A stretch of 64,000 bases of DNA from Clostridiales bacterium (GCA_016281915.1 JAEEJO010000012.1:30029-94028), one strand, 5' to 3'; counted from the first letter of the stretch, positions 13,920 through 62,910 are shown. The notes: a model not told the origin generated them from the letters alone. Made by a program: numbers and translations.

Positions 13920-13932
13920 ATTATTCTCCTTT

Positions 13933-15120
13933 TCAGAATATCGAGGCAAGACGTTTAACGCCTTCGTCTATTTCTTCATATGTTATTGTGAGCGGCGGAA
14001 GAAGCCTTACAGACTGCTTTGCAGTGAGGACAACCACTCCGTTTTTAAGTCCCTGCGCGGCGATCTCTTTTGCTGTTTTTGATCTGAAATCTATGCCGAG
14101 CATCAGTCCTCTGCCGCGTATCTGAAGTATCTCGTCGCCGAATTTTTCCGTAAGAGCCTTTTTCAGATATTCACCTTTTCTTTCGACCTCATCATAAAAG
14201 CCTTCGGAGGTCACAGTATCGATAACCACGTTTGCACCTGCGCACGAAACGGGGTTTCCGCCGAAAGTCGAGCCGTGATCGCCGAAAGAAAGCGTCTTTT
14301 CGGTTTTTTCGTTGAAAAGGCACGCGCCTATCGGCAGACCTCCGCCAAGTCCTTTTGCGAGAGTAACGATATCAGGCTCGATCCCGCTGTGCATATAAGA
14401 AAGAAGTCTGCCTGTTCTGGCTATGCCGGTCTGTATCTCATCAACGATAAGAAGGATATCCTGCGAAGAAACAAAGGCTGAAAGCTCTCTCAGGAATTCA
14501 TCTTTCAGCGGTAAAACTCCGCCCTCGCCCTGTATTGTTTCAAGCATCACGGCGCAGGCGTGTCCGTTATTTTCTACCGTTTTTTTGATTTCGTCAATGT
14601 CAGGCGCGCAGAAAACGAAGCCTTCGGTGAACGGGAAAAAGAAATTGTGAAAAACGTCCTGTCCCGTTGCGGAAAGCGTTGTCACGGTCCTGCCGTGAAA
14701 TGAATTTCTGAGCGTTATTATAACGTTTCTTTCGGCATCGGCACCGTATTTGTCAAAGCTGTATTTTCTCGCGGTTTTTATTGCACATTCGTTTGCCTCT
14801 GCGCCGGAATTGCCGAAAAACACCTTTTTCATTCCGCTCGCTTTGCAGAGTTTTTCCGCAAGAGAGGACGTAACGGGGTTATAATAAAGATTAGAGCAGT
14901 GCTGCATCCGCGATGCCTGCGCGGAAACAGCCGCGGCCCATGCGTCGTTTGCAATGCCGAGAGAATTTGTGCCTATTCCGCTGCCGAAATCGATATAATC
15001 ATTTCCGCTTTCGTCAAAAAAACGCGCGTTTTTTCCCGAAACGAAAGCGACGTCAAAACGTGAATAAGTATTGGCGATAAAGCTGTTGTCCTGTTTTTTT
15101 ATTTCGTTAAAAGTTTCCAT
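13933..15120 (-). CDS. argD: Acetylornithine aminotransferase (class III PLP)
   Basis: 395 aa with GSGAEANE, DEIQTGIARTG and TLAKGLGGGLP (PLP lysine region). Confidence 0.9.
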   Translation of the reverse strand: METFNEIKKQDNSFIANTYSRFDVAFVSGKNARFFDESGNDYIDFGSGIGTNSLGIANDAWAAAVSAQASRMQHCSNLYYNPVTSSLAEKLCKASGMKKVFFGNSGAEANECAIKTARKYSFDKYGADAERNVIITLRNSFHGRTVTTLSATGQDVFHNFFFPFTEGFVFCAPDIDEIKKTVENNGHACAVMLETIQGEGGVLPLKDEFLRELSAFVSSQDILLIVDEIQTGIARTGRLLSYMHSGIEPDIVTLAKGLGGGLPIGACLFNEKTEKTLSFGDHGSTFGGNPVSCAGANVVIDTVTSEGFYDEVERKGEYLKKALTEKFGDEILQIRGRGLMLGIDFRSKTAKEIAAQGLKNGVVVLTAKQSVRLLPPLTITYEEIDEGVKRLASIF

Positions 15121-15130
15121 CTGTTTCCTC

Positions 15131-15997
15131 TTAAAGCGTGTTGTCTATCATTGTTCCGATACCGCCGGACGTAAACATTTCGATAAGGATCGAATGAGCG
15201 ACTCTTCCGTCTATGATATGCGCGGAACGAACCCCTGCCTTTATCGCTGTTTCGCAGCAGCGAAGCTTCGGGATCATACCGCCGGATATTATGCCTTTAT
15301 CGATATATTCCTCTATTTCGTCTGTGGCGATTTTCGGGATCAGCGACGTATCGTCGTCTTTATCCGCTAAAACGCCCTTTGTATCGGTAAGAAGAATGAG
15401 CTTTTCAGCGCCGAGCGCTCCCGCGATATATGCCGCTGCGGTATCGGCGTTTACGTTATATGAATGTCCGTCGTTACCTACTGCAACGGTTGCGATGACG
15501 GGAATATATCCCGCACGGATATTATCCTCGATTATTTTTGTGTTTACCGACGTTATCTCGCCGACAAAGCCGTAATCGTTTATGCCGTCGTCAAGCTTTT
15601 TTGCGCATATAAGGTCGCTGTCAAGTCCGCAAAGACCGACCGCTCTGCCCCCTGCTCTGGCGATAAGCGTTACAAGATCTTTATTCACCTTACCCGCAAG
15701 TGACATCTGAACGATCTCCATCGTCTCGTCATCGGTATATCTCAATCCGTTTATAAAATGCGTTTCCTTGCCGAGTTTGCCGAGCATGGCGGTAATTTCG
15801 GGTCCGCCTCCGTGGACGAGAACGGTGTTGATGCCGACAAGCGAAAGAAGTATGCAGTCGGATATCACGGCATTCTTCATTATATCGTTTATCATAGCGT
15901 TTCCGCCGTATTTAACAACTATCGTCTTGCCGCTGAAACGCTGTATATACGGCAGTGCCTCGGAAATAGTATAAGCCTTTTCCTCGTATTTGTTCAT
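15131..15997 (-). CDS. argB: Acetylglutamate kinase
   Basis: 288 aa with VVKYGGNAM and VLVHGGGP, the amino-acid kinase fold. Confidence 0.92.
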   Translation of the reverse strand: MNKYEEKAYTISEALPYIQRFSGKTIVVKYGGNAMINDIMKNAVISDCILLSLVGINTVLVHGGGPEITAMLGKLGKETHFINGLRYTDDETMEIVQMSLAGKVNKDLVTLIARAGGRAVGLCGLDSDLICAKKLDDGINDYGFVGEITSVNTKIIEDNIRAGYIPVIATVAVGNDGHSYNVNADTAAAYIAGALGAEKLILLTDTKGVLADKDDDTSLIPKIATDEIEEYIDKGIISGGMIPKLRCCETAIKAGVRSAHIIDGRVAHSILIEMFTSGGIGTMIDNTL

Positions 15998-17208
15998 GTG
16001 CGGTAGTCTCCGTTTATCTTAACGTAGTCGTATGTAAGATCGCAGCCGAAAGCCTCTGCGGCAGAATCGCCGTCCTGCAAATCGATATCGATCGTTATTT
16101 CATCGCATGTAAGTATTTTCTTGGCAACCTCTTCGGAAAACGGGATGCCTGCTCCGTTTTTGCAGACGTCTACCGTTCCTGCCGACGAGATGAAAGAAAC
16201 GTTGATCTTATTAACGTCTATATCCTGATCCGCGTATCCCAGTGCGCACAGAACTCTTCCCCAGTTTGCATCAGCGCCGAACATTGCCGCCTTTACAAGG
16301 GATGACGCGACGACGGAATCTGCGAGTCTGGCAGCGCAGTCGTCGTTTTTGCAGTTACGCACCGAAGCGATAATGAGTTTTGTGGCGCCTTCTCCGTCCT
16401 TTGCGATCGCCCTTGCGATTTTTACGGAAAGAGCGCAGAGCGCTTCGACAAAAGAATCATAATCGGCGTTTTTTTCTGTTATTGTCTCATTGCCCGCAAG
16501 ACCGGACGCCATAACGGACATCATATCGTTCGTGCTTGTGTCGCCGTCAATATTGACCATGTTGAGCGATTTGTTTACGGCAAACGTAAGCGCTTCGTGA
16601 AGAAGAAAAGGAGTGATGGCAACGTCTGTGGTGACAAAACAAAGCATTGTCGCCATATGCGGATTTATCATTCCTGAGCCTTTTGCAATACCGCCTATAT
16701 ATGCCGTTTTCCCGCCTGCCTCAAACTCTACCGCGAACGACTTTTTGACCGTATCGGTAGTCATTATTCCTTCCGCGGCATCAGTGCCGTCCTTTGAAAG
16801 AGAAGAAACAAGAGGATCGATACCCGAAAGGATCGCTTCGATATTTATGGGCTGTCCTATTACTCCAGTAGAGCCGACGATAACGTCATTTTCAGAGATA
16901 CCGAGTTTTTCAGCAAGCTTTTTGCACGTGAGCTCGGCTTTTTCCACTCCGTCGGCATTGCAGGTGTTGGCGTTTCCGCTGTTGCAGATGACAGCCTGAG
17001 CATATCCGTCAGAAATATTGTTTTTTGTTACTGTTAAGGGAGCGCCCTTTACAAGGTTCTTTGTATAGACCGCGGCGGCGGCGCATCTCTTTTCGCAGAA
17101 AATAAGAGAAATATCTTTTTTATTCTGATTTTTTCTTATTCCGCAGTGACAGCCCGAAGCGGTGAAACCCCTGGGCGTTGTAACGGAACCGTTTTCAACA
17201 AAGTTCAT
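15994..17208 (-). CDS. argJ: Bifunctional ornithine acetyltransferase / N-acetylglutamate synthase
   Basis: ArgJ autoprocessing region MATMLCFVTTD. The ATG at 17208 (MNFVENGSVTTPRGF) follows AGAGGGAAAAGAC. An alternative ATG at 17235 overlaps the argC stop (TAATG). Confidence 0.9.
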   Translation of the reverse strand: MNFVENGSVTTPRGFTASGCHCGIRKNQNKKDISLIFCEKRCAAAAVYTKNLVKGAPLTVTKNNISDGYAQAVICNSGNANTCNADGVEKAELTCKKLAEKLGISENDVIVGSTGVIGQPINIEAILSGIDPLVSSLSKDGTDAAEGIMTTDTVKKSFAVEFEAGGKTAYIGGIAKGSGMINPHMATMLCFVTTDVAITPFLLHEALTFAVNKSLNMVNIDGDTSTNDMMSVMASGLAGNETITEKNADYDSFVEALCALSVKIARAIAKDGEGATKLIIASVRNCKNDDCAARLADSVVASSLVKAAMFGADANWGRVLCALGYADQDIDVNKINVSFISSAGTVDVCKNGAGIPFSEEVAKKILTCDEITIDIDLQDGDSAAEAFGCDLTYDYVKINGDYRT

Positions 17209-17234
17209 GTCTTTTCCCTCTGATCTGTATGGCA

Positions 17235-18278
17235 TTAAATTGCGGGAGGAACGAAATCTATTCCCGTTTTCTCATCAATTCCGAGCGCGATATTCATATT
17301 CTGGACAGCCTGACCTGCGGCGCCCTTTACCATATTGTCTATCGCGGAAACGATAATAAGTTTTGACGTGTGCGGATCTTCATGAACAGAAATATCGCAA
17401 TAGTTACTCATGCGGACGTTTCTGAGATTTGCGACCTCTCCGAGCGGGAGAACGCGTATAAAGTGTTCGTTTTCATATGTTTTTCTGTATATAGCGTAAA
17501 TATCTTCCAAAGTATATCCGCTGTTTTTTTCCGCATAAACGGTTGAGATTATGCCTCTGTTTACCGGAAGAAGATGCGGAACAAAAGTTACTTTTACGGG
17601 ATGCGAAGCAAAACGGGAAAGCGTTTGCTCGATTTCAGGAGTATGGCGGTGTTTGCCGATATTATAGGGTGAAAACGCCTCGTTGCATTCCGGGAAGTGC
17701 GTTTTCTGAGTAAGAGTTTTTCCTGCACCCGTAACTCCGCTTTTTGAATCAACTATAAAGTCGTCAGCCTTTACAAGACCGTTTTTTATTGCCGGGTAAA
17801 GTCCGAGCGCGACCGACGTGGGATAGCAGCCGGGATTGCCGATTATGCGCGCCTTTTTCACATCCTCACGGTATATTTCCGAAAGTCCGTATACGGATTT
17901 TTCATGCAGCTGCGGATAGATATATTCTTTACCGTACCATTGAGTATACGTTTCACCGTCATCAAGGCGGAAATCCGCGCCAAGATCGATAAAAAGCTTG
18001 CCCTGTTTATCGCATTCAAGAGCCAGCTCCTGAGAAAGGCCGTGCGGCAGCGATGCGAAAACAACGTCGCCTTTTTCGACCGCTTCTTTTTCGGAAACGA
18101 GTATCTGTTCGCAAATATCGCGGTATGCCGGATAAAGCTCGGCAATGCTTTGACCCGTATAAGAAACGGAGCTTAATGCGGCAAGAGTGACCGACGGGTG
18201 CGAAAGAAGTATTCTTACAAGCTCCGCGCCCGCATAACCCGATGCGCCGATAACGGAAACACTGATTTTGTCTGTCAT
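17235..18278 (-). CDS. argC: N-acetyl-gamma-glutamyl-phosphate reductase
   Basis: 347 aa with VIGASGYAGAEL (NAD binding) and GNPGCYPT (catalytic Cys). Confidence 0.92.
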   Translation of the reverse strand: MTDKISVSVIGASGYAGAELVRILLSHPSVTLAALSSVSYTGQSIAELYPAYRDICEQILVSEKEAVEKGDVVFASLPHGLSQELALECDKQGKLFIDLGADFRLDDGETYTQWYGKEYIYPQLHEKSVYGLSEIYREDVKKARIIGNPGCYPTSVALGLYPAIKNGLVKADDFIVDSKSGVTGAGKTLTQKTHFPECNEAFSPYNIGKHRHTPEIEQTLSRFASHPVKVTFVPHLLPVNRGIISTVYAEKNSGYTLEDIYAIYRKTYENEHFIRVLPLGEVANLRNVRMSNYCDISVHEDPHTSKLIIVSAIDNMVKGAAGQAVQNMNIALGIDEKTGIDFVPPAI

Positions 18279-18306
18279 AATATTACGAAAATTCCTTTCG
18301 GGTTTT

Positions 18307-19683
18307 TCATATGCTTTTATTTGCCTCTCTGAGGCGTTCTATTTGTATTTTTACTGCTTCAGGCGAAGGACCGCCTGCGGCTTTTCTGTTCAGCATGCAG
18401 TTTTCGAGATTTATGGCTGAATATACGTCGCTGTCGAAAAGAGGAGAGAATTCTCTGTATTCTTCCAATGAGAGAGATTCGAGATCTTTTCCTGTTTTTT
18501 CGCAATACATTACCGCTTTGCCGACTGCCTTATATGCATCGCGGAACGGAAGTCCTTTTCTGACAAGATAGTCTGCGCAGTCTGTGGCGTTTATAAATCC
18601 TTTTGACGCCGCAGCTCTGAGATTTTCTTTGTTTACCGTTGCGCCGGCAAGCATAGGAGTGAAAACGTGAAGGCACATTTTCACCGTATCGCAGCAATCA
18701 AAAACAGCCTCTTTATCTTCCTGCATATCTTTGTTGTATGCAAGCGGAAGAGATTTCATAACGGTAAGAAGGGACATCAGGCTGCCGTAAACACGTCCGG
18801 TTTTTCCGCGGCAAAGCTCAGCCACGTCCGGATTCTTTTTTTGAGGCATTATAGACGATCCGGTCGAAAACGCGTCGTCAAGAGTAATGAATCTGAATTC
18901 GGAAGAGCACCAGAGTATTATTTCTTCACAGAAACGGGAAAGGTGCATCATTATTAATGAACAGTCGGAACAGAATTCTATCAGAAAATCACGGTCCGAC
19001 ACTGCGTCCATGCTGTTTTCGCAGATTCCGTCAAAACCGAGAAGGTCGGCGGTCATATATCTGTCGATGGGGTAAGTTGTCGTAGCAAGAGCGCCCGCGC
19101 CGAGCGGACAGAGATTGAGACGTTTTCTGCAATCGGCAAGACGCTGTCTGTCGCGAAGGAACATCTGAGCATACGCCATAACGTAATGCGCGAAAGAAAC
19201 GGGCTGAGCGCGCTGAAGATGCGTATATGACGGCATAACATAATCAGTTGTTTTGTCTGCGATATCGGTTATTGCGCAAATAAGAGCGTCAAGTTTTTCA
19301 GAAACGGCATCCGTTTCATTCCGCATATAAAGGCGTATGTCAAGAGCGACCTGATCGTTTCTGGATCTTGCTGTATGAAGACGTTTGCCAGCATCGCCTA
19401 TGCGCTCCGTGAGTATCGTTTCGATATTCATGTGGATATCTTCCGCCTCGGCGGAAAAATCGAGTTTTCCCGATTCAACGTCTTCAAGAATGCCTTTCAG
19501 ACCGTTCTGAATTGCATTTTTGTCTTCCTCAGAGATTATGCCGCACCTGCAAAGCATTTCCGAATGGGCGATACTGCCCTCTATATCCTGTTTATAAAGG
19601 CGTTTGTCAAACGAGATGGACGAATTGAAATCATTTACGCGTCCGTCAACATCCTTGGAAAATCTTCCTGACCAGAGTTTCAT
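18307..19683 (-). CDS. argH: Argininosuccinate lyase
   Basis: 458 aa starting [10 protein letters not shown], with fumarate-lyase signature [12 protein letters not shown]. Confidence 0.92.
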
Positions 19684-19714
19684 TTATGCTCCTTTTCCGT
19701 GTTTCGGGTTATTA

Positions 19715-21082
19715 TCAGTTTTTAAGGCTTTGAATAGGCGCAGGGATACGCCCGCCTCGCGATATGAATTTTGCCGGTGAAAACCGGCTTATTCTCATAA
19801 CCGGAGCTTCGCCGAGAAGTCCGCCGAAAGAAACGGTATCCCCGACTGTTTTGCCGTATGCGGGAATAACGCGGACGGCGGTTGTTTTGGAATTGACAAC
19901 GCCTATCGCAGCCTCGTCAGCTATCAGAGCTGAGATAACCTCTGCGGGCGTATCGCCGGGAACAGCTATCATATCAAGTCCGACCGAGCAGACAGCCGTC
20001 ATGGCTTCCAGTTTTTCTATTGTAAGTGCGCCGCTTTTTGCGGCGTTGATCATGCCGGCGTCTTCGGATACGGGGATAAACGCGCCCGATAATCCGCCGA
20101 CATGGGAAGACGCCATTACGCCGCCTTTTTTCACCGCATCGTTGAGAAGCGCAAGCGCCGCGGTAGTTCCGCACGATCCGCAGCTCTCAAGTCCCATTTC
20201 CTCAAGGATATGCGCTACAGAGTCGCCGATCTCGGGAGTAGGTGCAAGAGACAGATCGACTATCCCGAAAGGAACGCCGAGACGCTGCGATGCCTGAGCG
20301 GCAACGAGCTGACCCATTCTTGTGATCTTGAAGGCGGTCTTTTTTATGGTTTCAGCAACCTCCGAAAGGTCTCCGTCACATTTTTCAAGCGCTTTTTTCA
20401 CTACCCCGGGGCCCGAAACGCCTACGTTTATCATGCACTCGCCCTCGCCAGTACCGTGAAAAGCGCCTGCCATAAACGGGTTGTCCTCGGGAACGTTGGC
20501 AAAAACAACGAGCTTTGCGCAGCCTATGGAATCGCTCTCGCGAGTAAGATACGCGAGCTGTTTTACGGTTTTTCCCATCATGGCGACGGCGTTCATGTTT
20601 ATGCCCGCTTTGGTGGAAGCGACGTTTACCGACGAACAGACGTTATCGGTCGACGCAAGAGCCGAAGGGATAGAATTGATAAGAGCCTTATCGCTTACCG
20701 AAAAGCCTTTCTGAACAAGCGCGGAAAAGCCGCCGATGAAATTTACACCGCAGGTATCCGCCGCTTTCTGAAGCGTTTCGGCAAACGGCGTGCAGTCGAA
20801 ATTTTCGTCATCTCCGACCGCTGCCGCCGCTATCAGAGAGATCGGCGTAACGGAAATGCGCTTGTTGATGATGGGAATACCCAGTTCCTTTTCTATGTTT
20901 TCGCCTACGGAAACGAGGTGTTCAGCTTTTTTCGTGATTTTATCGTATATTTTCCCGCAGCACTTATCTATATCTCCGTCCGCGCATGAATGAAGAGAAA
21001 TGCCCATCGTGACGGTTCGGATGTCAAGATGTTCCTGCGTTATCATATTTATGGTTTCAAGTATTTTACTGTCGTTTAACAT
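19715..21082 (-). CDS. UPF0210/DUF711 (PFL-like) family protein
   Basis: 455 aa. The N-terminus [24 protein letters not shown] is typical of the family as I recall it. It is preceded by its usual ACT-domain partner. Confidence 0.8.
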
Positions 21083-21137
21083 ATTTGCTCCGGTATTTTA
21101 AAGGTAAGACCTGAAGAGGCGAATTTATCGCTTCAGA

Positions 21138-21407
21138 TCATATATTGTGCATAGCGTCGAAGATCGATTCGTGCATGGTATGTATGACAAGGTGCTCTTT
21201 TTCGGCAAGAGAGTTCATAACGTCCACAAAATCCGCAAAACGGATATTCATTTCGTCAACGGAAATAAGCATCGTCATAACAAACATTCCGCCGAAGACC
21301 TTCTGAGTGATGTCGAGAATGTTTGCGTTGTATTTAAAGCACTCGGTGCTTACTTTTGCGATAATGCCAACGGTATCCTTGCCCGTAACGGTAATTACTG
21401 CGTTCAT
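21138..21407 (-). CDS. ACT domain protein (UPF0237 family)
   Basis: 89 aa, MNAVITVTGKDTVGIIAKVS... The size and pairing with UPF0210 are typical. Confidence 0.75.
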   Translation of the reverse strand: MNAVITVTGKDTVGIIAKVSTECFKYNANILDITQKVFGGMFVMTMLISVDEMNIRFADFVDVMNSLAEKEHLVIHTMHESIFDAMHNI

Positions 21408-21418
21408 CTGCGCCTCCG

Positions 21419-22651
21419 TTATTTATTCTTCTGAGTGTGTTTTGCGCGTACTTTGATGGGCAGACCGAAAAGATTTATAAAGCCAGCGCTGTCCGCCTGA
21501 TTGTATACTTCGTCTTCGCTGAAAGTTGCGATGTCTTCGTCATAAAGCGAATTGGGAGACGTTACGCCCGCATTTATGATATTGCCCTTGTAAAGTTTGA
21601 GCTTGACGGTGCCGGAAACTGTTTTCTGAGTTTCATCGACAAAAGCGGAAAGCGCCTCGCGGAGAGGAGTGAACCATTGACCGAAATAGACGAGTTCGGC
21701 AAAACGGAGAGCCGCCTGCTGCTTGAAGTGAAGCGTGTCTCTGTCGATGCAGAGCGTTTCGAGGATATCATGCGCCTGATAAAGGATCGTTCCGCCGGGA
21801 GTTTCGTATACGCCTCTCGACTTCATTCCGACAAGACGGTTTTCAACAAGGTCCGCGATACCTATGCCGTTTTCGCCGCCAAGCTTATTGAGCTTTCTGA
21901 TTATATCGGAGCCTTTCATTTTAACGCCGTCAACCGATACGGGAACGCCTTTTTCAAATCCGATCGTGACGTATGTGGGAGCGTCGGGAGCTTTTTCCGG
22001 CGAGACGCCGAGTTCGAGGATCTTATCATAATCCGGCTCGTTTGCAGGATCTTCAAGATCGAGTCCCTCATGAGAAAGGTGCCAGAGGTTCATATCTTTT
22101 GAATAATTTGTTTCCCTGCTGATCCTGAGCGGAATATTATGCGCCTCGGCGTAGTCGATCTCTTCGTCGCGAGATTTTATATCCCAGATCCTCCAGGGCG
22201 CGATTATAGGCATATCGGGAGCGAATGCTTTTATTGCAAGCTCGAATCTGACCTGATCGTTGCCCTTTCCGGTGCAGCCGTGAGCTATGGCGTCTGCGCC
22301 TTCTTTCAGTGCGATCTCAACGATGCGTTTTGCGATGATCGGACGGGCAAAAGAGGTGCCGAGAAGATATTTGTTTTCGTATACAGCGGAAGCCTTGAGC
22401 GTGGGGAATATATAATCGTCTACGAATTCATCCACGAGATCTTCTATATATATTTTGGACGCGCCTGTTTTTATCGCCTTCTCGCGAAGTCCGTCAAGCT
22501 CTCCGCCCTGTCCTACGTCGGCTGCAACGGCTATTACCTCGCAATTGTTGAAGTTTTCCTTGAGCCACGGTATGATGATTGACGTGTCAAGTCCGCCCGA
22601 ATAGGCAAGAACAACTTTTTTTATTTCTTTCTCTGATTTAAGATTTCCCAT
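21419..22651 (-). CDS. argG: Argininosuccinate synthase
   Basis: 410 aa with AYSGGLDTS (ATP pyrophosphatase motif) and [14 protein letters not shown]. Confidence 0.92.
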
Positions 22652-22811: not shown

Positions 22812-23471
22812 TCACTGATATTCTATCAAAGAAACATCCGCAACGCCCCGAAGCTCTTTTATGGAGTCTATAACGTCCATATCCCTGCCCTTTATGCGGA
22901 CATCGGCGGAAAGCTCCGTATACTCTTTCCCGTATACCTTTGCTCTGACCTTATATTTTGACAGAAGCCGCAGTTTGTGCTTTATCTCCTGCGCGGCATC
23001 GGGCGTATAGCGAACCGTTAAAAGGTACATCACAGCCGTTCCTTTTCTGCTGAAAAAGGATATCGCAAGATAGATAAGACCGATCAGCACGTTGGCAAAG
23101 AGAGACCAGAAAATAAGCCCTGCGCCCGTCATTATTCCTGCGCATACAGCCCAAAACATGAATATCGTGTCAACAGGATCTTTCACCGCTGTTCTGAATC
23201 TTACAATAGAGAGCGCGCCGACCATTCCGAGAGAAAGGACGAGATTTGATGTGACCGTCATGATTATTGCGGACGTGACAACCGAAAGAAGCGACAGAGA
23301 GAGCGCGAAACCTTTGTTGAGCACAACGCCGCGGAACGTTACTTTGTAGATAAAAATAATGAAAAGCGAGAGAATGAACGCGACAAGTACAGTGGCAATT
23401 ACTCCGAAAAACGTCAATTCACCGGAAAACTCGTTCAGTGCACTGTTTTTTATAATGTCCGAAAAATTCAT
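22812..23471 (-). CDS. DUF4956-like integral membrane protein
   Basis: 219 aa with 4-5 TM helices and SIVRFRTAVKDPVDTIFMFWAV, followed by a soluble C-terminal domain. Its ATG overlaps the VTC stop (ATGA). Confidence 0.7.
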   Translation of the reverse strand: MNFSDIIKNSALNEFSGELTFFGVIATVLVAFILSLFIIFIYKVTFRGVVLNKGFALSLSLLSVVTSAIIMTVTSNLVLSLGMVGALSIVRFRTAVKDPVDTIFMFWAVCAGIMTGAGLIFWSLFANVLIGLIYLAISFFSRKGTAVMYLLTVRYTPDAAQEIKHKLRLLSKYKVRAKVYGKEYTELSADVRIKGRDMDVIDSIKELRGVADVSLIEYQ

Positions 23472-24139
23472 AGGCAGCTCCCTTCAATTGCGCTTACAGC
23501 CATTGCGTATTTTGAATATGCGATCCGTTCGGCTGAAACGGATGACAGGATCGGGGTGAGAAAAGACGGAAAAACATCACTGTATTTTACTTCGAGAACC
23601 GCTGTTTCCGAAAAAACCGGTATAAAAGGTGCGGTTTTATCAAACAGTGAATTTTTGTCGAGAGAAAAACGGATGTTTTCGTCTATCGTTATTCTCGTTT
23701 CTCCTGCAGGAAAAACGAATGCAGTGCGGTCATAAGCAATGTTTGCAATCGGTTTCAGCCCCTGCGCTATGCGTTTTGCCTCAAACTCTTCTGCAAGAGC
23801 TCCGCTTTCGTGAAGTGAGCCTCCGCAGATGACGTCCCTCACGGAATTTTTATGCAATAAAAGTGAATATTTATCCACTAAATCATTCTTTTTGCATTTC
23901 TTCTCAAGCACGATATACGTTTCGTCACCGTTATACAGGCGGATCCGGAACTTTTCCCTGTCGCTGTCTCCGTCAAGCTTTTCGTAATATGCGCTCAGCG
24001 AGATGTCGTCGAAATAAAGGCTCGTTACGGTATACCGACCGTCTTTATAGTGCGGGTCGAATCTGAGGGAAGCGGAAAGAATACTTTTGAGAACAGTGCA
24101 TTCCGGTTTGCCGATCATGTATTTTTGTTCGTGTCTCAC
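23468..24139 (-). CDS. VTC-domain protein (triphosphate-tunnel fold, polyphosphate-polymerase-like)
   Basis: Start re-set to the GTG at 24139 (MRHEQKYMI..), with GGAGG 9 nt upstream and only 1 nt after the CotH stop. The RHExKY N-terminus plus the REKFRIRLY, LEKK and LEVKY strands fit the tunnel pattern. Confidence 0.75.
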   Translation of the reverse strand: MRHEQKYMIGKPECTVLKSILSASLRFDPHYKDGRYTVTSLYFDDISLSAYYEKLDGDSDREKFRIRLYNGDETYIVLEKKCKKNDLVDKYSLLLHKNSVRDVICGGSLHESGALAEEFEAKRIAQGLKPIANIAYDRTAFVFPAGETRITIDENIRFSLDKNSLFDKTAPFIPVFSETAVLEVKYSDVFPSFLTPILSSVSAERIAYSKYAMAVSAIEGSCL

Positions 24140-24140
24140 G

Positions 24141-27100
24141 TCACTGTTCCTCCGTTTCCGCAAAATCTCCCGTTTCGAGAGGCGCTTCCGTCTCGTCAGA
24201 AGAAGGAGCGGATGCAACAAGCGTATCGGCAGGTTGAGTGTAAACGAATATTTCATCGGGATTTTCGATAAGTCCCAGTTCAAGAGCAGTATCAAATTCC
24301 TGTCTCTCTTCGTCCGTCATGTAAAAATAATAGTCCACGGCGGGATCGGTAAGAGAAAAAAGATCTTTTATCTCCGCAACGAGCTGTTCTTTTCTCGTTT
24401 TGCCCGTATCATTTTTGTTGGTAACAAAGTTTTTTATTACTTTTGTCTGCCAGTCCCAGGTGTTGTAGCTGCTGCCCCAGCGGTTTATGTTTCTTACTAT
24501 CTCACCGCCGATCAGATTGCGGAAATGATCGACGCCCAAAGAAACTCGCTCCGGTGAAAAAGTGTTGTCAAGATGATATGCAAATCTTCGCAGGAACATA
24601 TCGAAAAACTCCGGGCTGCGAAGAAGACTGTTGATAAGGGCTGTGTTGTATTTGTGGGCATAGCCCGTGCCTTGTGGGTCTATCATGAACCAGAGGCCGT
24701 AGGTGCCGAATTCGGTATCGTCCGTCATGGCATAATCAAGGTCGTAAAGGATCCATCTCCATTTGCCGTCGGTCTCGCTGCTGCGGTAAAATTTGATATT
24801 TCCTGAATCTCTGTTGCCGAAAAACGCTTCGGCTATGATAAAATCGGCAAAGCTTTCAACGTCAACGCTTCTTTTCAGATAGGCGTAATTTGAAGGAACT
24901 GAAAGATCGTAGTTCCTTGCATACCACAAAACGCTGTACCAGTCGTCGTTGCTGCCTGAAATCACGTTCCCGTTGCCTACAAGAAGGTCTACGCTTTCTT
25001 TATTCACACCAAGATGCGACGCTATAAAATGCTCGTCTATCTTTTCACGGATATAATATATGCCGTAATACTCGCCGTTTATATAAAGCACACATGCTTT
25101 ATAGCCCTGAACGAGAAGATCCATATCAGCAGAAAGAGAAGTCGCAAGCTCGTCTCTGAAAAGAGAACGCCTGTAATCCTGAGATCCTGACCGCAGAACA
25201 AGAGAGTTGAAACGCGTTATCTCGGGGATATTGTCAAAAAGAGAGCAGTATATTTCCGGACAGCCGTATTTTGCGCGAAATTTCAGCTGAAAAGACTGCT
25301 TTGGGTACTCTCTGTTGGACTGACCGAAAAGTTTTATGCCGCAGTCAGCGTGAAAGCCCCATATACCGTCAAAAAGTTCGACTGAGCACGCCCTTTCCCA
25401 ATCCTGCCAGATATTTGCGTCCTTAGGATATTTCCCGTTTTCGTCAGCCTTGCCCCGAAAGCAAATGCCGTCCTTCTCTCCGAAAAGCCCCTGCGGGTCT
25501 GAAGAGACGGATATAACGGGAAGAGAGTGATTTTCGTTGATTATATAGCTTTCGGTTATACTTTTGCTCGGCAGCTTGCCCTCTTCGATATTAAGAGCAC
25601 GCACGACACATGTTTTGCCGACCGTTATCGGCTCTGAGTAGCGGATGCTTTCGGAGTCGGGCAAAGAACCGTCAAGCGTATAGTAAATATCGCCCTCTCC
25701 CTCAAAAGATAACAAAATTGAAGAGACGCCGTTGTATATACCGCCTTCAACGGAGGGTACCGGAGCGGGAGATATATATCTGACCCCCTCGGAATTCTCT
25801 GTTCCCGGTGTGGGAGACGGGATATAGACAAATCCGCCTTTCGACGGAGATCTTCCGAACGACATACCGTAGCGTATCTCGGTCAGCACGGCGCCGTCGG
25901 CAATGGTATAGCCTCCGTTTTCAGCTTTGAAAAGATAAAGCTCTTCGTATGCCGAATCAAGCCTGAAATTGCAGTGAATGAATGCGCTCGTTGATTTTTC
26001 GGGGGAGCCGGAAGCGAAAACAAGTATTATTTCGTTTGCCTGAAGCGTTATTGCGGGGAATTGCCACCGTGAAGGATCGTTTTTATTGCAGGTAAGGTAA
26101 TAATCCGAGAGCAGGACGGGAGAACCGGATCTGTTTTTAATCTCTATCCAGTCATAATACTCGCCGTTTTGCGCCGCATAACTGTCGTTTACGACCATTA
26201 CCTCGTTTATGATAAGAGCTTTTGAGGCATCGCTGTTTTTTGAGTATTCGTCGATATCGGTATATCCGGGGGAAGGAGTATAAAGAAGAGCCATCGTCTC
26301 TTCGGCAGACTCTCTTGAGAGGACCTTGCCGTTTTCAAGGTCGGTATAATCCTCTTCGTCTGTCAGCACGCCGTTTTTATCGCAAAGACTGACGTATCCG
26401 CCGTCCGAAGCAAGCCTGAAAGATGTGTGAAGCTCTCCAGACGTCCTGTTTTTTCCGGAAGCGAAAACAACGATGCTTTCATTTGAAGCAAGACGGACAG
26501 AAGGGAACGTCCATTTGAAGCGGTTTGTCGGATCGTCTGACAGAGTATAGCCTTCAAGATCAACGTCTTCATCGCCGAAATTCGTTATTTCGATATAATC
26601 GGAATACTCTCCGTCCGAGTCTGTAACGGTAAAAAGGTTATCCGCCATTATTTCCGTGATCTTTACAGGGTCGTTTTTTCTTACTCTTGAGGCGGCGAAA
26701 AGCGCCTTTCCCTGCTCGTTATTGGGATACAGCGGAGACGGAGCTTCGTTTGATTTCCACGAGCCGCTTTCTGTGCGCGCATAAACGTGATTCCGCTCGG
26801 TTTCAGCGGTAACGACACGGTCTGTTATAACGCCTCCGGCAGTATAAAGAGTAAATATCTCCCCGCCCCTTTTTGAGAGCTTCATCGGGCAGTAAAGTCC
26901 GCCCTTATTCTCGCCGCAGAAAAAAACAAGAAGATATCCGTTGGGAGAAAGCATTGTTCCGTTTGGGAAATACCACAGATCGGTATTCTTGTCTTCAGCA
27001 ATATACCATCCAGATATATCGACGGTTTTCGACGTCATGTTTCTTATTTCGGCGTAGTCATAAAACTGCCCGTGTCCGTCCGGATAAAAATTATCGTTTG

Positions 27101-27293
27101 AAAGAAGAAGCTCGTTAAAAACGACATCGCCGAAAACGCCTTCCGAAACTATCTGGATACGGTCGTCGCCTGTTCCTGATGCGGACGGAGATCGGGAAGA
27201 GACGGAAATGCCGAAAACGGTAAGAACGATGAGCGCCGCAGCGCCGATCACAGCAGCAACGATATACTGCACGTTTGCTTTCGAATTTTTCAC
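24141..27293 (-). CDS. Membrane-anchored CotH-family kinase-like protein with three lamin-tail-like domains
   Basis: Start re-set to the GTG at 27293 (MKNSKANVQYIVAAVIGAAALIVL, a TM anchor), 7 nt after GGAGAG. There are three LTD-like repeats (YDYAEIRN.., YSDYIEITN.., YYDWIEIKN..). The CotH region has LRSGSQDYRRSLFRDE, YINGEYYGIYYIREK, NRDSGNIKFYR and WRWILYDLDYAM. Confidence 0.8.
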   Translation of the reverse strand: MKNSKANVQYIVAAVIGAAALIVLTVFGISVSSRSPSASGTGDDRIQIVSEGVFGDVVFNELLLSNDNFYPDGHGQFYDYAEIRNMTSKTVDISGWYIAEDKNTDLWYFPNGTMLSPNGYLLVFFCGENKGGLYCPMKLSKRGGEIFTLYTAGGVITDRVVTAETERNHVYARTESGSWKSNEAPSPLYPNNEQGKALFAASRVRKNDPVKITEIMADNLFTVTDSDGEYSDYIEITNFGDEDVDLEGYTLSDDPTNRFKWTFPSVRLASNESIVVFASGKNRTSGELHTSFRLASDGGYVSLCDKNGVLTDEEDYTDLENGKVLSRESAEETMALLYTPSPGYTDIDEYSKNSDASKALIINEVMVVNDSYAAQNGEYYDWIEIKNRSGSPVLLSDYYLTCNKNDPSRWQFPAITLQANEIILVFASGSPEKSTSAFIHCNFRLDSAYEELYLFKAENGGYTIADGAVLTEIRYGMSFGRSPSKGGFVYIPSPTPGTENSEGVRYISPAPVPSVEGGIYNGVSSILLSFEGEGDIYYTLDGSLPDSESIRYSEPITVGKTCVVRALNIEEGKLPSKSITESYIINENHSLPVISVSSDPQGLFGEKDGICFRGKADENGKYPKDANIWQDWERACSVELFDGIWGFHADCGIKLFGQSNREYPKQSFQLKFRAKYGCPEIYCSLFDNIPEITRFNSLVLRSGSQDYRRSLFRDELATSLSADMDLLVQGYKACVLYINGEYYGIYYIREKIDEHFIASHLGVNKESVDLLVGNGNVISGSNDDWYSVLWYARNYDLSVPSNYAYLKRSVDVESFADFIIAEAFFGNRDSGNIKFYRSSETDGKWRWILYDLDYAMTDDTEFGTYGLWFMIDPQGTGYAHKYNTALINSLLRSPEFFDMFLRRFAYHLDNTFSPERVSLGVDHFRNLIGGEIVRNINRWGSSYNTWDWQTKVIKNFVTNKNDTGKTRKEQLVAEIKDLFSLTDPAVDYYFYMTDEERQEFDTALELGLIENPDEIFVYTQPADTLVASAPSSDETEAPLETGDFAETEEQ

Positions 27294-27413
27294 AGCGTCT
27301 CTCCTTTCCGGCAATACCCTATTATATCTCTATTATAATATATCATATTTTTATGCGAATATCAACACACATCGGATAAAAATATTTGAATTTTTTTGAA
27401 AGCACATATTAAT

Positions 27414-28666: not shown

Positions 28667-29908
28667 ATGGCTGTTCCCGTACCGGAAAAAAGAATCGCAA
28701 GATTTGAAAAATTGGGTTTCGGAATGTTCATTCACTGGGGTCTTTATTCCCAGTTGGGAAAAGGAGAATGGATCCAGGAGATAGGTAAAATACCTAAAGA
28801 AGAATATATCAAGCTGAAAGATACCTTTACGGCGAAGGATTTTTCGGGAAGAGAGATCGCCCGCATAGCCAAAAGAGCCGGAATGAAGTATATAACTCTG
28901 ACTACCCGCCATCACGAGGGTTTTTCTCTTTACGATACGCGCGGACTCAACGACTATGACGCGCCTCATTCGCCCGCAGGCAGAGATCTTATTGCGGATT
29001 TTGTTGAAGGCTGCCGCGCAGAAGGCATCCTGCCGATGTTTTATCACACGACACTTGACTGGTATAACCCTGATTTCAACGGTAATTTCAAGGAATATCT
29101 CAAATATCTCCGCCGTTCGGTGGAAATACTCTGCACCGAATACGGTGAGATCGGCGGCATGTGGTTTGACGGCAACTGGTCAAAACCGAACGAAGACTGG
29201 GAAGAAAACGAGCTGTATTCTCTTATAAGAAAAAATCAGCCTGATGCAATGATAATAAACAATACGGGGCTTGATGCACGCGGAAAGGTCGGAAATCCGT
29301 ATATAGACAGCGTAACGTTCGAACAGGGACGCCCCTCGCCGATGAACAGAGAGGGAATGGAAAAATACGTGGCGGCAGAAATGTGCCAGACGATAAACAT
29401 GCACTGGGGCATAGGCAGTCTCGATTTTGCGTATCAGTCACTGCCGGACCTTATCGAAAATCTCTGCGCGTGCAGAAAAGTGGGCGCAAACTATCTGCTT
29501 AACGTCGGTCCGACAGCCGAAGGAAGAATACTTCCCCTTCAGGCGGAGCTTCTTGCCGGTGTAGGCGACTGGATTAAAATGGCAGGCAACGCCGTATATA
29601 ACGGAAAGCCGTGCGATATTCATGCCGCCGGAAAAGATTTTGTTCTTTATGACGGAGAAAAATACTGGTTTTTCATTCACGATCTTTCGATCCTTTCACA
29701 GGCAAACGTAGTCAAGGGCGTGCAGGGCGTAGGTCCGAGATCGTTTACAAACGTAAAAACACGTTTCGGCTCGATCAGATGGGTGGACAACAACGAAGAG
29801 CTCGATTTTGTTCAGAACACGGACAACGGACTGATGAGCGTAAACTTCACAGGCTATCCTTACGGAACGAATACTGTAGTGAGAGTTGCGGTTGCAGATG
29901 CGATTTAA
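28667..29908 (+). CDS. Alpha-L-fucosidase (GH29)
   Basis: 413 aa with FGMFIHWGLYS, TTRHHEGFSLYD and WFDGNW, all typical of GH29. Confidence 0.85.
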   Translation: MAVPVPEKRIARFEKLGFGMFIHWGLYSQLGKGEWIQEIGKIPKEEYIKLKDTFTAKDFSGREIARIAKRAGMKYITLTTRHHEGFSLYDTRGLNDYDAPHSPAGRDLIADFVEGCRAEGILPMFYHTTLDWYNPDFNGNFKEYLKYLRRSVEILCTEYGEIGGMWFDGNWSKPNEDWEENELYSLIRKNQPDAMIINNTGLDARGKVGNPYIDSVTFEQGRPSPMNREGMEKYVAAEMCQTINMHWGIGSLDFAYQSLPDLIENLCACRKVGANYLLNVGPTAEGRILPLQAELLAGVGDWIKMAGNAVYNGKPCDIHAAGKDFVLYDGEKYWFFIHDLSILSQANVVKGVQGVGPRSFTNVKTRFGSIRWVDNNEELDFVQNTDNGLMSVNFTGYPYGTNTVVRVAVADAI

Positions 29909-30731
29909 GAAGGCTTACGTTGAAATAACGGATATCTGCAATCTTTCCTGCGCGTTCTGTCCCGGGACAAAAAGGAAAAAAGCGATGATGACCGAGGACG
30001 AGTTTTCGCTGGTTTTAAAAAAGCTGCGTCCTTTTACCGATCACATTTACCTTCATATTATGGGGGAACCGCTTTTACACCCGGATCTTCCGGCATTTCT
30101 TGACGTTGCCGCAAAGCAGGATTTCAGAGTTGTGGTCACAACGAACGGGACGCTGCTTGGCGAACGCGGTGAAGCGCTTCTTTCTTGCGCAGCGGTAAAG
30201 AAAGTGAATATTTCCGTTCATTCGTTCGAGGCATCAAAGCAGAGCGTGACGCTGGACGGGTATCTTGAAGGCTGTCTCTCATTTGCGAAAATGGCGGAGG
30301 GCAGAAAGATAATAGCGCTGCGTCTCTGGAACAGCGGAGGCATGGATGAAAAAAACGGCGAAATAATAGATATTATCCGCCGGTTTTTCTCTGATCCGTG
30401 GGAAAAATCCAGAACGGGCGTTTGCATAGGAAAGAATATCTTCATTGAATACGGCGAGAAATTCGACTGGCCGGATATCGAACTGACGACAGAGAACGAA
30501 AAAGTATTCTGCTACGGACTTCGCGATCAGATAGGAGTACTGTGCGACGGCACGGTAGTTCCTTGCTGTCTTGACAAAGACGGCAATCTCGCGCTCGGGA
30601 ATATTTTCAGCGAAAACCTCGAAGATATTCTCGTAAAGCCGCGCGCAAAGGCGATCTACGACGGGTTTTCGAGACGGACCGCCGTTGAAGAACTTTGCAG
30701 AAAATGCGGATACGCAAAAAGATTCGGTTAA
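29898..30731 (+). CDS. Radical SAM protein with a SPASM-like C-terminal Cys cluster
   Basis: CNLSCAFC (CX3CX2C) near the N-terminus. C-terminal cysteines: CDGTVVPCCLDKDGN ... CRKCGY. The ATG at 29898 (or TTG at 29886) overlaps the fucosidase 3' end. Confidence 0.75.
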   Translation: MRFKKAYVEITDICNLSCAFCPGTKRKKAMMTEDEFSLVLKKLRPFTDHIYLHIMGEPLLHPDLPAFLDVAAKQDFRVVVTTNGTLLGERGEALLSCAAVKKVNISVHSFEASKQSVTLDGYLEGCLSFAKMAEGRKIIALRLWNSGGMDEKNGEIIDIIRRFFSDPWEKSRTGVCIGKNIFIEYGEKFDWPDIELTTENEKVFCYGLRDQIGVLCDGTVVPCCLDKDGNLALGNIFSENLEDILVKPRAKAIYDGFSRRTAVEELCRKCGYAKRFG

Positions 30732-30748
30732 GATACAGGGTAAAGCAG

Positions 30749-31402
30749 ATGATAAAACATTTTGATGAAATACACGGACTTAATATTGCAAGACCGGAAG
30801 GGCAGAAACGGTTCGCATATGCCGTTTCGGAATTTGAGGATTTTTACGATCTTTCTCTTATGAAAGACAGCTGCGGATACCGCGGTGCAGTAATCAGGTT
30901 TTACGATTTTCAGACGGGAAAGGTATTTACGCCGTTTGAAAAGGAACGGAACGTTACTTACTCAAAGCCTTTATTTCATGGCGGTCATTTTTATTTTCTT
31001 CAGGGCGATTTCAACAGCCGAAGCATCAGGCTTTATGAATATTTCCCCGAACAGGTATGCAGAACCGTTGCGGTTTTCGATATCGATAAAACAGACCTCT
31101 ACAATCTTTCGCTGTTGGGCGAAGGCATGAACGTTATAAGTCAGAAAGATTATTTCAACTGCTATTATCCCACGAGGATATCGTTCCCGCTCGCTCCAAA
31201 CGAAACGGCGGTCGCCATACGCGAAGGCAAGGTATTTATAGAAGCGTGGCAGGAAGAGGGCTGGGACAGCGAGAAAGACCTCGCATCGGAAGAATACAGG
31301 TTTTACAACAAAGTTATCGTAAAGGACTTTGACGGAAATACCGTATCGGAAGAAACGGGCTCCCTTTTTATATGCGAAGACGGCACGTTGTGGATATCCT
31401 GA
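30749..31402 (+). CDS. Hypothetical protein (217 aa, no recognisable motif)
   Basis: An ORF with protein-like composition, 15 nt downstream of the radical SAM stop. Start set to the ATG at 30749 (MIKHFDEIHG). Confidence 0.5.
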   Translation: MIKHFDEIHGLNIARPEGQKRFAYAVSEFEDFYDLSLMKDSCGYRGAVIRFYDFQTGKVFTPFEKERNVTYSKPLFHGGHFYFLQGDFNSRSIRLYEYFPEQVCRTVAVFDIDKTDLYNLSLLGEGMNVISQKDYFNCYYPTRISFPLAPNETAVAIREGKVFIEAWQEEGWDSEKDLASEEYRFYNKVIVKDFDGNTVSEETGSLFICEDGTLWIS

Positions 31403-31695: not shown

Positions 31696-32865
31696 TTATT
31701 TGACGGAAAAATCTATTCTGCCGGTGAAAATGTAGTTAGGATCGCAGTTTTTCTCACATGTTTCTACAGCGATCTCTTCGGGACGGTATTCATTGTTTTT
31801 AACAGATACGTTATCTGCTTTTATGATAACCTCGGGTTTTGAAACAAACATTTTTTCGTTATAGTATACCGAAAATTCGGATGCAGTCGCCTTTTCAACG
31901 GTGATAGTGCATTTTTCACGGTCATACGATACAACAAGTTCGCCTGTAGTAACGTCTTTATCCGCGCCAAGCCAGTAGAAGGTATCCGTTTTGCGGAGCG
32001 GAGCCCTCTGCGAAAGGTTCCATACAACTCTGTCAGGATACGGATCTCTCGTCTGCTGAGAAAGGAAGGTTACGGCATTTACGTCTTTTTCTATATACTC
32101 TCTGTCGCCTTCACGAAGCCATGCGGCATTGTTTTTTATAACGGCTCTGGGAGTGAAGGATGAATCGTTGTCTCTGAAATTGTGAGCCTTGTCGAAATGG
32201 ATATTCGCTTCATGGCGATATCCGCCGTATTTTTCCGAAAGGGAGGTAAGGTATTCGTCATATTCCGCGATGAGTTCGTTTCTTCTAAAGAAATAGTCCC
32301 GCTCCCCTGCCTGAATAATAAACGCCATGTTTCTGAGGTTTTCAAGCTTTACGTTGTTGGGACATCCCGCAGACATATTCGCAGCGGCAAATCTGTCCGC
32401 CATTTTCGGCGTAGTTATGTATACGCCGTCTCCGCCTGCCGAAAAGCCCATTATATATACCCTGTTAGGGTCTACGTTGTTAAAAAGGACCATATTTGAT
32501 ATAAGCTCGTCGTAAAGCGGAAAGCTTTCGGGGTTTGCATGAGTATCCCACGTATCGCGAACGCCCCTGCACGCAACATAAACGCCGTTTTTTACGCTGT
32601 CGCGGTAATATATTTTCATATGCTCCCACTGGCTGTCGTTAATATCCGGGGTGTCACTGTGTCCGCCGCCGTGAAGGGCGATATAAAGAGGATATCCGTT
32701 TTTTTCGGGTTCGCCGTTCACGGATATGCCGTAGCGCATTTTTACTTCACCGAAGTGCATTACCTGCTGTTCGGTTTCTTCTATACGTTTTCCGTTTTTT
32801 CTTTCACGTTCGCAAAAATCGTTCCAGACATGTTCGCGAATGAAAGCAGATTCTTTTTCTGTCAT
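31696..32865 (-). CDS. Alpha/beta-hydrolase fold esterase (carbohydrate-esterase-like)
   Basis: 389 aa with an oxyanion-region-like LYIALHGGGHS and nucleophile elbow GFSAGG. Confidence 0.6.
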   Translation of the reverse strand: MTEKESAFIREHVWNDFCERERKNGKRIEETEQQVMHFGEVKMRYGISVNGEPEKNGYPLYIALHGGGHSDTPDINDSQWEHMKIYYRDSVKNGVYVACRGVRDTWDTHANPESFPLYDELISNMVLFNNVDPNRVYIMGFSAGGDGVYITTPKMADRFAAANMSAGCPNNVKLENLRNMAFIIQAGERDYFFRRNELIAEYDEYLTSLSEKYGGYRHEANIHFDKAHNFRDNDSSFTPRAVIKNNAAWLREGDREYIEKDVNAVTFLSQQTRDPYPDRVVWNLSQRAPLRKTDTFYWLGADKDVTTGELVVSYDREKCTITVEKATASEFSVYYNEKMFVSKPEVIIKADNVSVKNNEYRPEEIAVETCEKNCDPNYIFTGRIDFSVK

Positions 32866-62830: not shown

Positions 62831-62910
62831 TCTGTTATTCGGTCATCAAGTCCGCAAAACACGGAAATTGCCGAAGTCTTTAACTGAAATAAAGGCTTGA
62901 CCCTGCTTTC

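Follow-up and report, generated by a model that had tools for sequence, protein, structure and literature searches.

What might a protein of the CotH kinase family, predicted to lie outside the cell, have to do with a tunnel enzyme of the polyphosphate polymerase type and a small polytopic membrane protein? The question is raised by three minus-strand genes at positions 22,812-27,293 of a 64,000-nt stretch of DNA from a Clostridiales bacterium (JAEEJO010000012.1:30029-94028; the whole stretch is called the window), which encode proteins of the CotH, VTC and DUF4956 families. Comparison across genomes showed that VTC and DUF4956 are the core of a module, and that the third member is usually a membrane-tethered extracytoplasmic protein, mostly CotH. 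The module is self-contained, conserved and mobile. It is autonomous rather than tied to the pel exopolysaccharide genes, because pel genes are rarely nearby and the flanking contexts are unrelated. The reading preferred here, possible if not yet probable, is that VTC makes polyphosphate inside the cell, that DUF4956 holds it or lets it through, and that CotH uses or anchors it on the outside. The three genes are as follows.

24141-27293, minus strand: CotH gene, 1050 amino acids (aa), GTG start at 27293 (assigned with Pfam)
23468-24139, minus strand: VTC gene, 223 aa, GTG start, without a signal peptide (assigned with Pfam, the structure model and residues)
22812-23471, minus strand: DUF4956 gene, 219 aa (assigned with Pfam and the structure model)

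These open reading frames (ORFs) are arranged head to tail. The CotH stop codon TGA occupies 24143-24141, and the VTC GTG codon (24139-24137) opens one base later; the sequence ATGA at 23471-23468 joins the VTC stop to the DUF4956 ATG in a 4-nt overlap. An AGGAGA ribosome-binding site (RBS) is located six bases ahead of the CotH GTG at 27293. Two further signals were found upstream of the CotH and VTC genes.

27337-27365, minus strand: promoter-like site, TTGATA and a TG-extended TATATT separated by 17 nt, about 44 nt upstream of the CotH start
24149-24153, minus strand: GGAGG RBS of VTC, within the CotH 3' end, 9 nt ahead of the GTG

The promoter-like site is a consensus match only, with 10 of 12 consensus positions matched and the TG present. 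The alternative VTC start, ATG at 24118, would drop R2, E4 and K6, which are invariant in the family; GTG 24139 is therefore required as the start. One protein in the public collection (P0001) is identical to the 223-aa VTC (100% identity) and was independently called with the same start. No intrinsic terminator was detected after DUF4956, and an Rfam scan in and around the operon gave no credible RNA element. The initial annotation had described these junctions (TGA at 24141-24143, GTG at 24139, the GGAGG, and ATGA at 23468-23471), and all of them were confirmed on the sequence. Its calls of CotH, VTC and DUF4956 domains all passed the Pfam curated cut-offs, which are 23.8, 23 and 30.6 bits, respectively, and Pfam supported the LTD call too; no NCBIfam model matches any of the three proteins. 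The topology agreed as well, with one N-terminal transmembrane (TM) segment in CotH, no signal peptide in VTC, and a polytopic DUF4956 with a soluble tail. Whether the three genes make up one operon for an envelope polyphosphate or phosphotransfer module is bound up with the full mechanism discussed below, and is put forward just as tentatively.

The neighbourhood survey used one genome per species. VTC relatives were found in at least 600 genomes, and the best 80 loci were analysed. These loci, which are dominated by gut Clostridia, were recovered by a single peptide pattern that leaves out the window's own clade, and were typed with profiles from in-house alignments and a simple in-house ORF caller. 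DUF4956 directly follows VTC in 78 of the 80 loci; of the other two, one is cut by the end of its contig. An anchored CotH adjoins the pair in 61 loci, in the order VTC-DUF4956-CotH in 41 and CotH-VTC-DUF4956 in 20. No CotH was seen in 8 loci whose contig is cut too near for a judgement, nor in 11 loci that have at least 3 kb on each side. The close relatives L001-L003 retain the entire window neighbourhood. Distant relatives carry the trio as VTC-DUF4956-CotH in different places: one copy is found between metallophosphatase and penicillin-binding protein genes, and another between genes for a DAO-family oxidoreductase and a GH2 glycosidase. The initial annotation had expected the trio to be a conserved neighbourhood, and this is borne out among unrelated flanks. 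PelF homologues occur within 10 kb in 3 of the 80 loci and PelG homologues in 2; none was found in the 64-kb window, nor in three other trio contexts that were compared. Of the three proteins, DUF4956 shows the strongest conservation (85-88% identity to the closest relatives, vs 66-68% for VTC), and no VTC-DUF4956 fusion protein was seen among the matches listed. One survey locus labelled as Escherichia coli (L020, CAVGWF010000056.1) carries a Clostridia-like VTC-DUF4956-CotH trio, and is probably a mis-binned metagenome contig.

The VTC protein matches the Pfam VTC family (PF09359) over aa 2-217 of 223, with 133.8 bits (cut-off 23) and an E-value of 9e-39. A profile of 43 bacterial homologues matched yeast Vtc4 in the PDB with an E-value of 1.8e-13. 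In this alignment K6, R65, R67, K81 and Y136 correspond to Vtc4 K200, R264, R266, K281 and Y359, and R138, E183, S209 and K210 correspond to R361, E426, S457 and K458. Cryo-EM has shown that E426 of Vtc4 chelates Mn2+, while the other eight residues hold triphosphate; mutating these eight lowers cellular polyphosphate, and K458 is the sole position of the nine that differs in the inactive Vtc2 and Vtc3 (bioRxiv 10.1101/2023.01.27.525886). All nine equivalents are invariant in the 43 bacterial homologues, and the catalytic residues of the tunnel are retained (9 of 9), as the initial annotation had supposed. Structure models were made with AlphaFold2 and compared with known folds by Foldseek. 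The VTC model has a predicted local distance difference test score (pLDDT) of 94.8, and its top matches are the Vtc4 structures 3G3R, 3G3Q and 8I6V; the template-modelling scores of this predicted structure are 0.75-0.80, with E-values of about 1e-16. Other tunnel enzymes match more weakly, with 3e-9 for the ygiF triphosphatase and 1e-7 or worse for CyaB-like and thiamine-triphosphatase folds. By all sequence and fold criteria, the protein is a Vtc4-type polymerase domain, and its predicted structure and residues make polyphosphate synthesis fairly likely. Since the protein has no hydrophobic segment, it should be cytoplasmic. N-terminal extensions of 140-400 aa were found on 25 of the best 150 VTC representatives (including P0325, P0339, P0367 and P0399). 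They are basic, proline-rich and of low complexity, with a net charge of +4 to +28 in four examples, and a Pfam scan found no domain in them. Such basic extensions would fit a polyanionic product. The family is large: at E ≤ 1e-10 the VTC profile matched about 8,000 clusters (50% identity), the eukaryotic Vtc proteins included.

The DUF4956 protein matches its Pfam model (PF16316) marginally, with 33.9 bits against a cut-off of 30.6, and all 47 of its 47 homologues match the model. It contains the signature LSLGMVGALSIVRFRTAVKDPVD, which is invariant in the family and specific to it. The structure model (pLDDT 77) has a short amphipathic helix, followed by TM helices at aa 21-45, 53-72, 75-95, 99-116 and 120-142, and a β-α-β-β-α-β ACT-like domain at aa 148-217, which is predicted to be cytoplasmic. 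The N-terminus has a charge of -2, and the loops at aa 43-53, 91-101 and 143-147 have charges of +3, +1 and +1, respectively. These charges fit an N-out/C-in topology, which would place the most conserved element of the family on the cytoplasmic face.

23169-23201, minus strand: RFRTAVKDPVD loop, DUF4956 aa 91-101, at the end of TM3 that is predicted to be cytoplasmic

In this loop R91 and R93 are each conserved in 81 of 81 sequences, and K97 in 80 of 81. The yeast channel carries rings of basic residues at its cytoplasmic mouth, and polyphosphate accumulation depends on them. By analogy, the RFRTAVKDPVD loop might be a candidate site for binding an anionic polymer. The Foldseek search with the DUF4956 model gave matches for the C-terminal domain only, to ACT, PII and NikR-type ligand-binding folds, and the search of the PDB with the sequence gave only noise. 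Weak NapD matches were found in 31 of the 47 homologues (C-terminal domain), and weak MgtC matches in 16 of the 47 (membrane part). The latter are below the threshold of the MgtC family (PF02308; best E-value 0.0015), and the window protein itself has no match. Some DUF4956 relatives are named 'YhiD' by their sources, including JGI. The arrangement is like that of MgtC/YhiD/SapB proteins, in which about five N-terminal TM helices are followed by a small cytoplasmic ACT-like domain; however, the matches of DUF4956 lie below the Pfam threshold, and its signature is specific to the family. We know of no pairing of MgtC with a tunnel enzyme.

The CotH protein consists of a signal anchor, three LTD repeats, an Fn3_assoc/CHB_HEX_C_1 region, and the CotH kinase domain; the orthologue in L001 has the same architecture and 1044 aa. 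Its main elements are listed here.

27201-27266, minus strand: N-terminal hydrophobic segment, aa 10-31, YIVAAVIGAAALIVLTVFGISV, after K2 and K5
26343-26675, minus strand: best-scoring LTD repeat of the three, aa 207-317 (PF00932)
25545-25748, minus strand: Fn3_assoc/CHB_HEX_C_1 region, aa 516-583 (Pfam)
24411-25337, minus strand: CotH kinase domain, aa 653-961 (Pfam PF08757, 159.6 bits)
24809-24807, minus strand: catalytic D829 (NRDSGN), from the alignment to Bacillus cereus CotH
24743-24741, minus strand: metal-binding D851 (YDLD), from the same alignment

The N-terminus reads MKNSKANVQ followed by 22 hydrophobic residues, and the bulk of the protein is predicted to be extracytoplasmic by means of a signal anchor or a signal peptide. 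The three LTD stretches together score 134.1 bits (Pfam). Searches of the PDB with the single CotH sequence found nothing, and a profile was needed. A profile of 28 homologues matched B. cereus CotH (5JD9) with an E-value of 2.4e-21; it also matched the Fn3_assoc/CHB_HEX_C_1 region to 6q63 and 8ayr. In this alignment the NFD and WD motifs of 5JD9 are matched by N827-R-D829 and Y850-D851 of the window protein, in which the spacing is 22 residues (vs 23 in 5JD9). Substitution of the corresponding B. subtilis residues, D228 and D251, inactivates the enzyme (PMC7821199). Both D829 and D851 are kept in 59 of the 59 CotH proteins that are encoded beside VTC-DUF4956. The initial annotation had placed the CotH domain outside the cell on account of its N-terminal anchor, and 62 of 63 partner CotH proteins are alike in having an N-terminal hydrophobic segment. 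In the single exception the segment is located further in, most likely because the ORF was called with a start too far upstream. A C-terminal TM anchor is additionally present in 28 of these proteins, and for these doubly anchored ones the predicted topology leaves no doubt that the kinase domain is extracytoplasmic.

CotH is not the only protein found in the third position. In 7-8 of the loci without CotH (both full-flank loci and cut contigs), a gene for a Cthe_2159 (PF14262) β-helix protein comes right after DUF4956 (L014, L015, L029, L047, L062, L077 and L078). These proteins carry a signal segment at the N-terminus and a TM anchor at the C-terminus. Members of the Cthe_2159 family bind cellulose and polygalacturonic acid, a linear polyanion (bioRxiv 10.1101/401869). 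The Cthe_2159 protein appears to be an alternative extracytoplasmic partner of VTC-DUF4956. Since CotH can be replaced by a polyanion-binding β-helix, the outside partner may deal with an exported anionic polymer. Among fungi, the CotH and Cthe_2159 Pfam domains were reported to be unique to the anaerobic gut fungi, and Cthe_2159 was argued to have come by horizontal transfer from Clostridiales of the rumen (bioRxiv 10.1101/401869). The families unique to these fungi are the same two that alternate as the third partner in rumen and gut bacteria.

Other genes also recur beside the module. An anchored phosphodiester glycosidase of the NAGPA family (PF09992) is encoded one or two genes after DUF4956 in 7 CotH-VTC-DUF4956 loci (L033, L039, L054, L066, L071, L073 and L087), and six of them (all but L071) also encode an anchored protein of 461 aa that matches no Pfam family. 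These neighbours hint that surface chemistry may involve sugar phosphodiesters. An OmpR-type response regulator and a HisKA kinase adjoin the module in 28-29 of the 80 loci, either co-directional upstream or divergent (for example L008:1465-3349, L025:7987-9895 and L044:7916-9827); the window has no such pair. The matches of this two-component system are generic OmpR/PhoB-class ones below all NCBIfam equivalog cut-offs, and do not support a claim of phosphate sensing.

The gene cluster is already known, but its distribution is much wider than one would gather from the two papers that mention it. Whitfield et al. (bioRxiv 10.1101/768473) described the cotH, polyphosphate polymerase, DUF4956 and DUF4832 genes as an accessory group that directly adjoins pel operons in streptococci, clostridia and bifidobacteria. 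In Streptococcus intermedius, the three genes SIR_1594-1592 were deleted singly; the authors suggested a link to phosphate metabolism, described the membrane protein family as MgtC-like with an ACT domain, and did not find the synteny outside pel loci (PMC12345266). The last statement does not hold for the 80 loci surveyed here. In the NELoc-2 locus of Clostridium perfringens a VTC gene is present in two copies, each with a gene behind it for a cytoplasmic-membrane protein of about 225 aa annotated as 'tubulin/FtsZ', and there is also a CotH gene (PMC2879425). The position and size of the 'tubulin/FtsZ' protein suggest that it is a candidate DUF4956.

The window shares with the pel accessory group the three contiguous families, the secreted type of CotH, and the ACT-like tail of the membrane protein. 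However, it has no pel genes, no DUF4832 was found among the flanking genes scanned, the order is CotH-VTC-DUF4956, and the CotH protein carries LTD repeats in place of the C-terminal FN3 domain. The yeast VTC complex (Vtc4/Vtc3/Vtc1) resembles the module in its homologous tunnel domain with all nine residues, K458 included, and in the obligatory pairing of a cytoplasmic polymerase with a small polytopic membrane protein whose cytoplasmic face bears conserved basic residues. The differences are considerable: the bacterial VTC has no SPX domain and is a stand-alone protein of 223 aa that is not fused to TM helices; its partner DUF4956 (five TM helices, MgtC-like, ACT-like tail) takes the place of the three-helix Vtc1/DUF202; the target would be the cell exterior or wall instead of the vacuole; and there is an additional extracytoplasmic partner. 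The bacterial module works like the VTC complex at most, and is not a member of it. It is an uncharacterised bacterial variant of the design of a VTC polymerase plus membrane partner, with an extracellular kinase added. The CotH protein of Bacillus belongs to the same Pfam family as that of the window, and the catalytic and metal-binding aspartates are conserved at nearly identical spacing. The Bacillus protein has 362 aa, is produced inside the mother cell, a compartment that contains ATP, and phosphorylates CotB and CotG, whereas the window protein has 1050 aa with a signal anchor, three LTD repeats and an Fn3-associated domain, is predicted to lie outside the cell, and is encoded with VTC-DUF4956 instead of cotB/cotG. 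It is a member of the family and not the spore-coat CotH, because it has the N-terminal signal anchor and its neighbours are VTC, DUF4956, PTS EIIC and argG.

A mechanism in three steps may be proposed. The catalytic residues and the fold suggest that cytoplasmic VTC would polymerise the γ-phosphate of ATP into polyphosphate. DUF4956, which is probably oligomeric, might dock the polymerase at the membrane and conduct the nascent chain outward or hand it over. In yeast, the Vtc4 tunnel sits on a membrane channel, and synthesis is coupled to translocation; by analogy with this channel, which is built of unrelated helices, export via DUF4956 is plausible. The anchored CotH protein, which would face an ATP-poor exterior, may then use the exported polymer as a phosphodonor or as the transferred group. 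Its targets might be surface proteins or glycans, and the LTD and Fn3-associated domains may place it in the wall. The use of polyphosphate as the CotH donor is speculative, and is the most speculative step. For the full chain from synthesis inside to use or anchoring outside, our confidence is limited, and it is proposed as a working model.

Several points weigh against this chain. In the papers searched, no activity measurement was found for any VTC protein of bacteria, for DUF4956 or for a secreted CotH; the remark in the initial annotation that no function had been shown for the trio stands in this respect, but the trio had been described and its genes deleted in S. intermedius. In that species, deletion of DUF4956 raised Pel and deletion of CotH lowered it, each deletion approximately halved aggregation in artificial sputum medium, and no aggregation or Pel effect was reported for the VTC deletion (SIR_1593) (PMC12345266). 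A linear chain predicts similar phenotypes, so the opposite effects and the silent VTC deletion fit it poorly. The 10 or 11 full-flank loci without CotH indicate that CotH is not obligatory for VTC-DUF4956. DUF4956 is unrelated to the Vtc1-type channel helices, and no structural match of its membrane part was found in the PDB by Foldseek. Its nearest family, MgtC, is to our knowledge not known as a channel, and the resemblance to MgtC would also fit a regulatory role. The characterised CotH uses ATP, and no sequence sign of a switch to polyphosphate was seen in the window protein. The view that the three proteins look like one machine, as first annotated, is therefore upheld in part: the unit moves between contexts, exists in two orders, and has CotH substituted by another tethered protein, whereas the silent VTC deletion speaks against it.

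Other explanations may be weighed on the same evidence. VTC and DUF4956 might deposit polyphosphate at the membrane or beyond it, where it would store phosphate or cations or form a polyanion on the surface, and CotH would then not be a polyphosphate-dependent kinase; it could bind, cap or anchor the polymer, or phosphorylate surface targets from a different donor, for example ATP set free when cells lyse. The evidence for synthesis and export applies equally here, and the swap of the third partner for a non-kinase polyanion-binding β-helix, together with the loci that have no CotH, would be expected. However, the catalytic aspartate pair of CotH is kept in all 59 proteins, so phosphotransfer seems to be under selection, and binding would not need these residues; moreover, no alternative extracellular donor is evident. 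We consider this explanation unlikely. The MgtC-like features lead to another one, in which VTC-DUF4956 is a regulatory or homeostatic device of the cytoplasmic face and not an exporter. The tunnel enzyme would hydrolyse or sense triphosphate, ATP or polyphosphate, its MgtC-like partner would modulate membrane energetics or phosphate signalling, as Salmonella MgtC does, and CotH would be co-regulated and mechanistically separate. Many tunnel enzymes are hydrolases or cyclases, and the weak MgtC matches (16 of 47), the YhiD naming, the ACT/PII/NikR-type fold, the OmpR-type two-component systems in 28-29 of the 80 loci, and the silent VTC deletion in S. intermedius are all consistent with such a device. 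It is made quite unlikely by the nine of nine Vtc4 residues, K458 included, and by a fold that is far nearer to Vtc4 than to the hydrolytic tunnels; it also leaves the near-constant membrane-tethered extracytoplasmic third gene unexplained.

The trio might instead be a dedicated accessory of a Pel-type exopolysaccharide, with CotH modifying or phosphorylating the polysaccharide or its machinery. In streptococci, clostridia and bifidobacteria it directly adjoins pelDEADAFG (bioRxiv 10.1101/768473), the CotH and DUF4956 deletions alter the Pel level and aggregation (PMC12345266), and the NELoc-2 trio adjoins a chitin-synthase-like glycosyltransferase (PMC2879425). In the survey, PelF/PelG genes are found beside the trio in L049 and L050, and the NAGPA genes after the trio in 7 loci may hint at sugar-phosphate chemistry. 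However, PelF and PelG are within 10 kb in just 3 and 2 of the 80 loci, neither is present in the 64-kb window, and the operon is located between PTS EIIC and arginine genes, which makes this explanation still less probable. The large ectodomain of CotH raises a different point. CotH-family members act as invasins in fungi (Mucorales), and the main role of the protein might be adhesive or structural at the surface, as has been suggested for these invasins, with its linkage to VTC-DUF4956 due to co-regulation. Three LTD repeats and an Fn3-associated domain in a large multi-domain ectodomain would suit such a role, but the catalytic residues are invariant, the linkage is found in two orders and many contexts, and the genes are translationally coupled here; this role is very improbable as the main one.

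Bacterial polyphosphate synthesis has been attributed to PPK1 and PPK2, and VTC is carried by at least 600 species-level bacterial genomes, many of them from gut and rumen. An evolutionary review maps VTC-domain proteins across eukaryotes only (PMC10657179). If active, the bacterial VTC enzymes would supply gut communities with polyphosphate on a large scale, a contribution not recognised so far, and the very widespread DUF4956 family, which may be related to the virulence factor MgtC, would have its first function. The module may also show how bacteria place phosphate polymers or groups on their surface. Secreted bacterial kinases have no obvious extracellular phosphodonor, and the operon offers a concrete and testable answer. 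In its boldest form, the proposal would be a third, Vtc4-type bacterial route to polyphosphate, with an MgtC-like conduit that brings the polymer to the cell surface and a secreted CotH protein that uses polyphosphate instead of ATP to phosphorylate or polyphosphorylate proteins or glycans there; this combination is unlikely, and if true, ATP-independent extracellular phosphorylation would be common in gut Firmicutes. Two loci that carry the module, NELoc-2 of C. perfringens and pel of S. intermedius, are associated with virulence, so that the chemistry of the module bears on biofilm and host interaction. The proteins of the trio are small or modular enough for direct biochemistry.

A second VTC-DUF4956 pair was found near the end of the window.

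63605-64000, minus strand: second, paralogous VTC, C-terminal 131 aa only, cut by the window end; keeps YDR, RLTID, LEVK and FSKY
62911-63582, minus strand: second DUF4956, 223 aa, 26% identical to the first; keeps IRFRSA

A hairpin with a T-run (about 62790-62835) follows the second DUF4956 gene, and no CotH gene is found downstream. The 476-aa ORF at 61151-62581 (minus strand) was considered as a third partner and rejected: it encodes a lipoprotein (aa 18-21 form the lipobox LAAC) that matched neither Pfam nor the CotH profile, has its own promoter region, and is located behind the terminator-like hairpin.

The flanks of the first operon are formed by a phosphotransferase-system (PTS) EIIC gene followed by fucosidase, radical-SAM and GH2 genes upstream, and by argG and further arginine-biosynthesis genes downstream. 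The arginine-biosynthesis genes are arranged in a run at 13005-22651 (minus strand): argG, argH, argC, argJ, argB, argD and argF, as assigned by Pfam in the syntenic L001. An ACT-domain gene (21138-21407) and a DUF711 gene (19715-21082) are inserted between argG and argH. On the other side, the radical SAM/SPASM gene (29886-30731, plus strand) has a 37-nt overlap with an ORF of 235 aa (30695-31402) that has no Pfam match. Beyond it there is a convergent gene of 389 aa (31696-32865, minus strand), also with no Pfam match, and both of these genes are conserved in L001-L003.

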